Positions 24,055-27,000 of a stretch of 64,000 nt of DNA are shown here, piece after piece. The DNA lies in NCBI GenBank assembly GCA_964016885.1, contig OZ024741.1, positions 326,616,001 to 326,680,000 of the forward strand, written 5' to 3'. Below the pieces are notes generated by a model. The model was not told the origin of the DNA. It saw nothing but the letters and a program-made list of their open reading frames with translations, and ran no database searches. Origin of the DNA: Eledone cirrhosa. Taxonomy: Eukaryota. Position numbers and translations under genes: made by a program. The number at the start of each line of letters is the position of its first letter. Position 1 is the stretch's first letter.

Positions 24055-27000
24055 AAATAAGACTCTAGTTGCATTTTCGATTTCATCTTTTTTTCTTTAT
24101 ACTTTCACTCGTGTAGGACACCTCGGTTATTTTTCATTTTGTAAAAAAAACCTCACTTTCTAATACATACCCACCACAAGAAGACCGAAAATGCCACCAA
24201 AGTCTCAACAAAACAACAACTCACTGAACCAGGACATCTTAAATGAGCTGAAAGAGATTTCCTCTAAACTCTCAATTTTGACCAACAAAGTGGACCAAAT
24301 ACACATCTATAAAAAAGGACCCCATGAAGAAACAGAAAATACCCAAGAGACGAATATTTCTCCAGCATTAACTAAACTAATCGAAACCATTGAAACAGCA
24401 ATGCTCCAAAAGCTGGAACAACCATTAGGACCCAATCTACGAGATGTCCACTCAGTGAAAAACACCCTAATCAACATATGGACTCAAAAGCTCACAGCCC
24501 GCAAATTCGCCCTTTGGAATCTCCTAAAAAATAATGGCAAGGCAGACATATATGAAAAGTGGCTAAACTCTACCCCAATCATCCTCCCAAAAAAACTCCA
24601 AATAAAACCCATCCCGAATGAACCAGAAAACCACCAAAGACTTAGGGAAAAAAAGTGCGTTAGAAAAATTTAAAATAGAAATAGAACTGTTGCGATTAAG
24701 AGCCAACCTCAACGAAGAAAAATTCAAGTCACTCGACCAACAGATGGACACAGAAATCTCAAAGCACTCTGAAGGACTACTCTACGAAAAAACCTTAAAA
24801 CTTTGGAAAGAAAACTGTGAGGATGAAGAACTAACATCCCTCCAGCGATGGGAAAAAAACGCCACCTGGCTCAACAACTACGAAATGGACTTCTAAAATG
24901 AACAACATACAGGTAACCCATTTTTAAACAAACTAAAACTCACACACCACATGCACAACAATTAACAAAAAAAGTAACAAAACGTCCAACATACCCCCAG
25001 CAAAACTATAACGATAATCCCAGAAACCATAGACAAAACTCATAACCCTACTAACAAAAACCGAAGATGCCCGAACACAAGGCAGCACCCGATCCGCAGA
25101 TCACAACCCACACAAAACCCATTCCAAAACCGTAGATCCCTGCCCACACAGAGCCTGTTCCAAAACCGTAGATCCCAACCCACACAAAGGAACAAAATCT
25201 ACAACCCGGACTATCAACAAACCGAACCTCAATACGTCCGAAACTTCTATACAAGACCACACAACAACAAGGGAAATACCATTAGATATAATAATACCAT
25301 CGAAAAATCATCCCAGAAAAATCATTTTTTAGACCAAGGCTACAGGAGCCACGACACCCGGTGGCACAAACCGATTTTGAAATACCGAAAATAATCAACC
25401 ATTCAAATACAAACCTCTCAGCCCAACAAGTAAAAATTCTCTCCAAAAGACTGAAATTCACACCAACACCACCATACTCTAACCCCAATGTGATAAATGA
25501 CGATATCTCACACTTCTGTAGAAAATTACGTCTCACAGAGGAATTCTTTGACAAGGAGAATAACGACGAATCAATTGTACGGAATAAAAGCAGCTACAAC
25601 CGAACAAAAGGTAGAAACAGAGTTCTGGACTAATTTTGTGACCACATAGCTACTTTCCCATACCATGAACTAGCGCAACCTAAACTCAAACCCAACACGA
25701 GTCGAAGGGAGTGGGAGATTATCCATGAACTAAAAAACAATACAGACATTATAATTAAGGAAGCGGACAAGGGAAGTACTGTTGTCATTATGGAGGCTGA
25801 AAATATAAAAATTCTATGTTCTCTCTCTTACAAAATACTAATTACTATGAAAGAGTAAAAAACTACCAGCAATCAAAAACATTGACCAGATTAGACACAC
25901 TGATTTATCGATAACAGGAAGACCTAACTAAAAAGGAACGCGATTATTTAACACATTTTGAATACAAAACCAGCAGCCTTTACGGACTTCCGAAGATCCA
26001 CAAGTGTAAAATAATTAACGATGCCTGTAAACAATCCACCTCAGCCTGCGTGAACACACAATACCCCACAGACCTTAAATTAAGACCAATTGTAGCGGGC
26101 CAACAATATGAAACACACAGACTGTGCAACTTTATAGACATACTACTAAAACCAATTCTCAAACACATACCAAGCCCTGTAAGAGACGATGTGGACCTCT
26201 TGAACCACATCCCCAAACTTGTCAACAACGACACTATTATTGTGTCTTTCGATGTAGTGAATCTCTACACAATGATCCCACACCAGTACGGACTAGAAGC
26301 AATAGGATTCTGGCTAGAGAAATATCCCAATGCGATACCTGACAGAATAGAAAAACGCTTCATCACCGAGGGATTAAAATTCATCTTACAGAACAACTTT
26401 TTTGATTTCGATGTCAGTACTTACAAGCAAATATCGGGGACTGCGATGGGTACAAAAGCCGCTCCAACTTATGCCAACTTAGTCATGGCATACTTAGAAG
26501 TCCAGATATATGAACAGTCCAAAATACGGATTGAACTTCCATAAATATTTATCAGAGAATTGGAAACGCTACTTGGATGATTGTCTCATTCTTTGGTCCC
26601 ACACACTCGACCAACTGAAGGATTTCAAAAAGTTAATAAACGGCATCAATAACCACATTCAATTCACAATGGAATACAGCCAAGATCAATTCCCATTTCT
26701 GGACATCTTGAAACATTGAAACTGACATACACTACAAACCAACAGATTCCAAACAATACCTGCTATTCACTTCCAACCACCCAAAGCACACGAAGACGAA
26801 CATTCCTTTTAACCTAGCAAGAAGAATTTGCACAATTGTCTATAATTATGGAACGCGAAATAAAAGACTTCAAGAATTAAAGGAAATTCTACTCGAAAGA
26901 GAGTACCCAAAATTACTAATAAATAATGGAATAGAAAGGGCTAAAGCAATAGGCATTGATGAATTACGAAAACAGAAACAATTTCAAGGTACGTCCAATA

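Follow-up and report, generated by a model that had tools for sequence, protein, structure and literature searches.

An ORF1 overlapping the reverse transcriptase frame at a U UUU UUA heptamer in endonuclease-bearing Penelope-like elements

Described two-ORF elements and the locus analysed

Penelope-like elements (PLEs) that bear an endonuclease (EN+ PLEs) are described as single-ORF elements encoding an RT with GxKF and DKG motifs and, at the C-terminus, a GIY-YIG domain, and those of the Neptune type have a CX2-5CxxC linker and microsatellite-rich flanks (PMC8557442; this and the other literature below is cited from the sections consulted). The legend to Fig. 1 of Craig et al. 2021 (PMC8557442) speaks of an ORF1 set apart through a frameshift with a pseudoknot, the clade being unnamed there, and section 8 of Arkhipova and Yushenova 2019 (PMC6431247) ties two ORFs to elements lacking the endonuclease. 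A fish Neptune with two non-overlapping ORFs has also been reported, the part consulted giving no mechanism.

The DNA analysed here (the window, 64,000 nucleotides in length) contains an element, termed family 1, that shares the microsatellite-rich flanks, the C-terminal GIY-YIG domain and the GxKF and DKG motifs of a PLE-type RT. Its second reading frame encodes, in order, an N-terminal GxKF block, the RT, a CX4CX2C linker and the GIY-YIG endonuclease (PF01541, 24.6 bits against a cut-off of 22.6, window 27150-27584), and Met is absent ahead of the RT core. Judged by the linker motif alone, the element is probably Neptune-like; the long linker resembles the Neptune rows by eye. The single-ORF description (PMC8557442) does not fit, as an ORF1, of 400-455 aa in these elements, overlaps the RT in the -1 frame (Table 1).

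The original prediction for this locus placed a -1 frameshift at a TTTTTTA heptamer, with a small hairpin as stimulator. We confirmed in the sequence that the heptamer (25325-25331) is in phase with a frame open from 24978 to 25394, and that the RT frame (25295-25633) is in the -1 register with stops just upstream. The second heptamer (33635-33641) is indeed present, but it is not an independent copy: positions 23681-40269 form an 8.3-kb direct tandem duplication, flanks included, whose units (23681-31959 and 31959-40269) differ by 2 mismatches and which represents either a recent segmental duplication or an assembly artefact. An ORF1 start at 24618 had been suggested, whereas the ATG is actually at 24191; 24618 and 24978 share a frame in the window copy but not in its duplicate. 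The stem of the GGCT/AGCC hairpin does begin at 25338, although the fold is weak (-3.6 kcal/mol) and, of the 53 family-1 loci that could be scored, only 2 carry the AGCC arm: the window copy and its tandem partner. Longer folds downstream of this heptamer reach z values of -0.8 to -1.8.

The family-1 copy in the window is broken, with frameshifts and stops in both ORFs, and 24 matches to X XXY YYZ occur within the element, a lone heptamer being common by chance. The junction therefore had to be judged on other copies.

Table 1. Positions of the PLE features in the window
Feature	Position	Strand	Remark
ORF1 of family 1	24191..25394	+	starts at ATG 24191; frameshifted and stopped in the window copy
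Slippery heptamer U UUU UUA (Phe-Leu in ORF1 phase)	25325..25331	+	
4-bp hairpin of the original prediction	25338..25350	+	base private to this copy; not a family feature
Codon +11 after the heptamer, family 1	25361..25364	+	UGG (Trp) in the ORF1 frame, GUG in the RT frame
Family-1 ORF1 stop	25392..25394	+	20 codons past the heptamer
ORF2, -1 frame	25295..27587	+	several breaks in the window copy
Heptamer in the tandem duplicate (31959-40269)	33635..33641	+	not an independent copy
Decayed family 2 element	11165..14900 (end approximate)	+	ORF1 44% and RT ~50% identical to family 1
Family 2 heptamer U UUU UUA	12619..12625	+	no downstream fold
Family 3 copy, 5'-truncated	15637..17620 (end approximate)	+	

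The two-frame junction in four families and in distant relatives

A search of the genome with family 1 gave 40 scored matches at 96-100% identity. One locus (L021) encodes an ORF1 of 409 codons from stop to stop (400 aa from the ATG) overlapped in the -1 frame by an ORF2 of 615+ aa, and a 409-codon ORF1 followed by an ORF2 open to the locus edge is found at 12 of 24 loci, a set that came from a protein search and is biased toward intact ORF1. Going by the modal spacing between anchors, the ATG of family 1 shares its frame with the Phe-Leu that the heptamer encodes, and the junction is identical in length in 46 of the 47 scorable loci (from 55 examined, a few of them sampled twice). A pattern blind to run length matches 266 places in the genome; by hand count of the 100 listed, 91 are modal, 3 deviate by -1, 5 by +1 and 1 by +3. 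The 15-mer around the heptamer has 488 genome matches, compared with 5 for a reversed control. Although the heptamer alone is common, this excess and the matching position of the heptamer in all four of the diverged families indicate that its conservation is not due to chance.

In all four families found in this genome, an ORF1 of ~400-455 aa contains U UUU UUA in phase and is followed by RT-GIY-YIG in the -1 frame, and the RTs of the other families are ~50-57% identical to that of family 1. Two further diverged PLEs, belonging to families 2 and 3, lie in the window itself. The family 2 RT frame has a stop (12613-12615) one codon upstream of the heptamer, the ORF1 stop (12656-12658) is located exactly 10 codons past it, the 15 bases around the heptamer are shared with family 1, and the 40-nt overlap contains no AUG. 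Of 30 family 2 loci, 3 lack the exact motif; in 26/27 of those that have it, the RT block occupies the -1 frame. We also considered that the family 2 ORF1 might end at the UAG of the run, with a +1 shift; the modal spacing and the shared upstream stop favour the Phe-Leu frame, an assignment that includes one ambiguous C-run segment. Family 3 is young: intact copies elsewhere encode an ORF1 of 455 aa and an ORF2 of 784 aa with the same heptamer and a 10-codon tail, and the T6 run is kept at 20/21 loci reaching the junction. Family 4 is represented by 11 intact copies (427 plus 775 or 777 aa) among the loci examined, its junction reads U UUU UUA GGG, and its RT matches RVT_1 at 30.3 bits (cut-off 29.6). 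Searches of the same genome with distant ORF1 sequences returned only the families already known from it.

Intact copies of families 1, 3 and 4 carry two overlapping ORFs and not the single ORF by which EN+ PLEs are described. Checked for one continuous ORF, which the original prediction had named as counter-evidence, the copies were found to keep two ORFs, and the -1 overlap with its heptamer was found again in distant relatives. It could be argued that the split is a product of decay in a single-ORF element and that Phe-Leu is a protein motif, given the many breaks in the window copy and the existence of family-4 copies fused into frames of 1138-1181 aa. This is hardly credible, as young, near-identical copies are split, stand-alone ORF1 homologues number in the hundreds, and the fused copies arise from a variable C-run and are scattered on the tree (9 changes, with 179/500 shuffles as low). 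The same evidence led us to reject a fused master lineage within family 4, for which the tree sample is biased because loci were hand-picked for odd lengths. The C-run, located 30 nt past the slippery site (L130:1754-1763 and other copies), is hypervariable: 49 of the 100 listed are modal and 51 non-modal, the latter distributed 11/18/22 over the three frames (hand count).

More distant representatives show variation at the site. L156 has U UUU UUG in the same two-frame layout, again without a Met before the RT core. L221 has U UUU UUA in the same layout, with a putative ORF1 counterpart upstream. The weakly homologous ORF1 of L223 contains only U UUU CAC, with an AUG 8 codons later, which argues against a universal heptamer. 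Across the seven DNA families an in-phase X XXY YYZ heptamer is present in 6/7, the last RT-frame stop lies 1-10 codons upstream of the site with an open frame from there on in 7/7, and no Met precedes the conserved N-terminal block in 4/7. The two-frame junction is a real and ancient feature; the hairpin of the original prediction is not.

No conserved fold accompanies the heptamer. Families 2 and 3 give 0.0 kcal/mol over the 45 nt downstream, and the folds of families 1 and 4 over this interval are no better than those of shuffled sequences. A frameshift of the HIV-1 gag-pol type, stimulated by a 3' hairpin or pseudoknot as originally proposed, has some attraction: U UUU UUA is in phase, G is often the next base, and the GGG of family 4 reproduces the HIV context (PMC5009743). 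For family 1 and L156, weak stems or a possible pseudoknot can be constructed, and many homologues with long tails have Gly-rich (G-rich) tails that could potentially fold. These elements nevertheless differ from HIV-1 gag-pol in lacking a conserved downstream stem-loop and in having an ORF1 with neither a Pfam match nor a gag-like fold, and with the named hairpin private to two of 53 loci we regard a stimulator of this type as distinctly improbable. Our fold search covered the downstream 45 nt, and long-range or protein-dependent stimulators are possible.

Spacing between the heptamer and the ORF1 stop

Among 93 ORF1 homologues of at least 280 aa, Phe-Leu is found within the last 45 aa of 73, whereas two control windows located further upstream gave 4 each; Phe-Leu or Phe-Phe is found in 78 and neither in 15. 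Codons in these database proteins were deduced from residues, and C-termini were taken as true stops. The residue preceding the dipeptide is K, E, Q, M or W in just 1/78 (background 21%), an avoidance that we attribute to the need for the preceding codon of a slippery site to end in U (pyrimidine). Other in-frame Phe-Leu pairs in the ORFs of the DNA families do not read T TTT TTR (0/23). Phe-Arg or Phe-His replaces Phe-Leu in P0026, P0035, P0042, P0109 and L223, in which an in-phase U UUU is retained; these variants may possibly serve as single-tRNA slip sites.

We consider it probable (roughly 0.65), on the evidence of sequence comparison, that a -1 programmed frameshift at U UUU UUA joins ORF1 to RT-GIY-YIG. 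A minority of ribosomes would slip back one base at the heptamer to give an ORF1-RT-endonuclease fusion, and the excess of free ORF1 would act as an RNA-binding or structural protein. Slippage by RNA polymerase on the T6 run would also fuse the frames, since a one-base insertion in the run yields an in-frame fusion RNA, and the run is one base longer in 5 of the 100 listed genomic matches (266 in all). However, such slippage has no need of the codon phase that is fixed in 78/93 homologues, T6 is a short run, the variants in L156 and L223 are of the kind expected for a decoding signal, and the spacing of the stop described below is left without a reason; we consider transcriptional slippage very unlikely.

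The U-run followed by AG could alternatively be a 3' splice acceptor joining upstream sequence to the RT frame. Introns are known in PLEs (PMC8557442), TTTTTTAG is found in all four families of this genome with the AG of the possible acceptor kept, a G-starting codon follows the dipeptide in 54/78 homologues, and several of the exceptions could place YAG one or two codons later. Yet there is no AG at the site in L156 (TTTTTTG TTC) or L223, and YAG is impossible within three codons in 6/76 homologues and within one codon in 19/76. When families 1, 3 and 4 were scanned crudely for donors, only phases 0 and 1 emerged, whereas joining ORF1 to the RT requires phase 2, and a donor in the 5'-UTR would deprive families 1-3 of an AUG. 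Splicing also predicts neither the fixed codon phase nor the minimum tail length described below, and we judge it a slim prospect. No endpoint falls at the junction AG among 15 listed joints of 73 (four contig runs, of unrecorded kind), which says nothing either way. A donor-like CAG/GTAACC is present where the helical part of ORF1 ends in family 1 (window ~24909-24917) and family 4 (L130 ~1197-1205); splicing from it to the junction AG would retain the ORF1 frame and remove the disordered tail.

The distance from the dipeptide to the ORF1 stop was compared in 76 homologues, an RT fragment and one read-through copy having been removed beforehand. Exactly 10 codons intervene in 22/76, where ~3.5% would be expected, and tails of fewer than 10 codons are absent (0/76), where the stop density of the frame leads one to expect 51-58%. 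The remaining 54 tails are longer (20 codons in family 1 of the window), and their excess averages 12 codons, matching random stops; periodicity past the first peak (20, 30 codons) was not established among the 76 tails. Families 2 and 3 also have 10 codons. Proteins of the ten-codon class are a median of 32% identical and have dissimilar tails. This class is clustered on the tree (0/500 shuffles as low), so the rows are not independent; it requires 9 changes, at least 5 of them by well-supported branches, and when the data are counted as 12 lineages the empty interval below 10 still has P ~2e-4.

A gap of 10 intervening codons is the reported minimum between collided ribosomes in yeast, gaps behind a terminating ribosome being somewhat longer (bioRxiv 2023.02.01.526718). 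In E. coli reporters a heptamer located 8-10 codons upstream of a slow stop shifts most, the optimum being equal to the ribosome spacing (PMC6815119), ribosome stacking behind a terminating ribosome has been proposed for a plant virus (PMC4737148), and where the 0-frame stop lies affects shifting in SARS-CoV-2 (PMC8168617) and PEMV (PMC4737148). The E. coli case is engineered, whereas the spacing described here is natural, conserved and equal to the eukaryotic gap, and the viral cases, as presented in the sections consulted, have stops within 1-5 codons and depend on RNA structure. From the floor and peak at 10 codons and the reported gap between collided ribosomes, we infer, tentatively and at somewhat less than even odds, that the ORF1 stop lies one ribosome-length (10 intervening codons) past U UUU UUA in order that a terminating ribosome may act as a roadblock replacing an RNA stimulator. 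The slip would then be aided by bumping into the ribosome terminating at the ORF1 stop and not by an RNA hairpin. The ten-codon class fits a collision directly, and families with 19-20 codons, including that of the window, would fit only as a longer queue. With the same reservation, collision-programmed shifting may be a natural and conserved property of a large animal clade of EN+ PLEs.

Codon +11 after the heptamer coincides with the stop of ORF1 in families 2 and 3 and lies within A-UGG in family 4. A separate RT could be produced by reinitiation or internal initiation at an AUG, or at a near-cognate codon, that overlaps codon +11 of ORF1 (A-UGA, A-UAA, A-UGG); the U-run would then be an upstream element at fixed distance, comparable to calicivirus TURBS or to stop-start coupling in SART1. 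The overlapping RT-frame codon is AUG in family 4, GUG in family 1 and AUA in families 2 and 3, and coupling of this kind tolerates near-cognate starts and a start-stop distance of ~30 nt (PMC10275272). In close RT homologues the protein opens with M-E or M-A, the conserved block following within a few residues; for 57/120 RT homologues the predicted start lies upstream of that block, and the second codon begins with G in 31 of these 57, which would fit an initiation site of their own. Gene callers, however, print GTG and TTG starts as M, and a stop or Trp at +11 automatically gives N-U-R in the RT frame. L156 lacks any start-like Met ahead of the RT core, an AUG in the -1 frame is impossible as far as the ORF1 stop in 14/76 tails, and 4/22 ten-codon tails cannot have an A preceding the stop. 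As in TURBS and the UAAUG of SART1 (PMC10275272), a start-like codon may overlap the ORF1 stop at a fixed distance from an upstream element; unlike in those systems, there is no universal AUG or overlap, and the element is a slippery heptamer and not an rRNA-pairing motif. Initiation at +11 leaves unexplained both this canonical slippery motif and an RT frame that opens at the heptamer (7/7), and we regard it as unlikely. A motif D-T/V-R/G/K-W ends at codon +11 in the window (25353-25364), in P0001, P0003-P0006, P0008 and P0009, and in L130. It is limited to one sub-clade, the others having a stop at this codon, and might represent a pause peptide, the relic of a stop or the context of an RT start.

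ORF1 proteins, prior descriptions and further observations

The family-1 ORF1 protein is predicted to form long helices (~residues 83-238) and to end in a disordered tail rich in N, Q and R, and the AlphaFold model (mean pLDDT 56) likewise contains long helices. Searches of ORF1 gave no Pfam family, no Atlas match, no PDB fold match and no gag-like fold. A profile search returned 799 clusters (identity threshold 50%), and none of the 150 best-scoring among them exceeds 496 aa; the database search for fused ORF1 forms of 701-2000 aa found none, which is weak evidence. A helical, possibly coiled-coil ORF1 joined to the RT by a frameshift is also a feature of the two-ORF frameshifted PLEs (PMC8557442). 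Unlike the two-ORF pseudoknot PLEs, with which we compare them by description only, the elements reported here have an endonuclease, are dispersed and carry no conserved pseudoknot. We take the pseudoknot type of the Fig. 1 legend mentioned above to be Athena.

The observation of two overlapping frames revises the single-ORF picture of endonuclease-bearing PLEs and accounts for the RTs with arbitrary starts and the orphan ORF1 proteins present in databases. We found no earlier account of the stop spacing, which appears new in the literature searched, or of a two-ORF frameshifted EN+ clade, although an earlier description is possible (Repbase and Dfam lay outside the scope of the search). In the literature found, collision-driven frameshifting has so far been shown in engineered bacterial reporters only. 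Should the spacing of the stop prove functional, these elements would provide hundreds of natural variants with which to test collision-programmed frameshifting in eukaryotes; RT output would be tied to ribosome load and termination speed, and translation load or stress is predicted to tune transposon activity.

Relatives were sought in metagenome contigs, in viral contigs and in 122 genomes of one bacterial order, and none was found. PLE-bearing contigs do occur inside bacterial genome bins (L156-L162, L213-L242), one bin having more than 150 matches, and the names of several RT homologues are those of symbionts. These contigs are likely to represent contamination by host (animal) DNA. A related PLE at L158:188-3208 has a single ORF of 1006 aa with a different N-terminal region, and is a possible outgroup for the split layout.

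Several further features were observed in and around the window elements. Rfam searches detected no hammerhead in L130 or L141, only microsatellite noise. In a check for pseudo-LTRs the 5' segment 24054-24169 was found to recur nearby, the element termini being unmapped. Broken ORFs without a Pfam match are located at 29064-31168 and in the duplicate, and resemble a decayed DNA transposase. Rearranged family-1-like fragments are present at 43657-46107, where two inverted pieces lie beside a direct 3' piece, an arrangement that represents either an inversion of PLE type or later decay.
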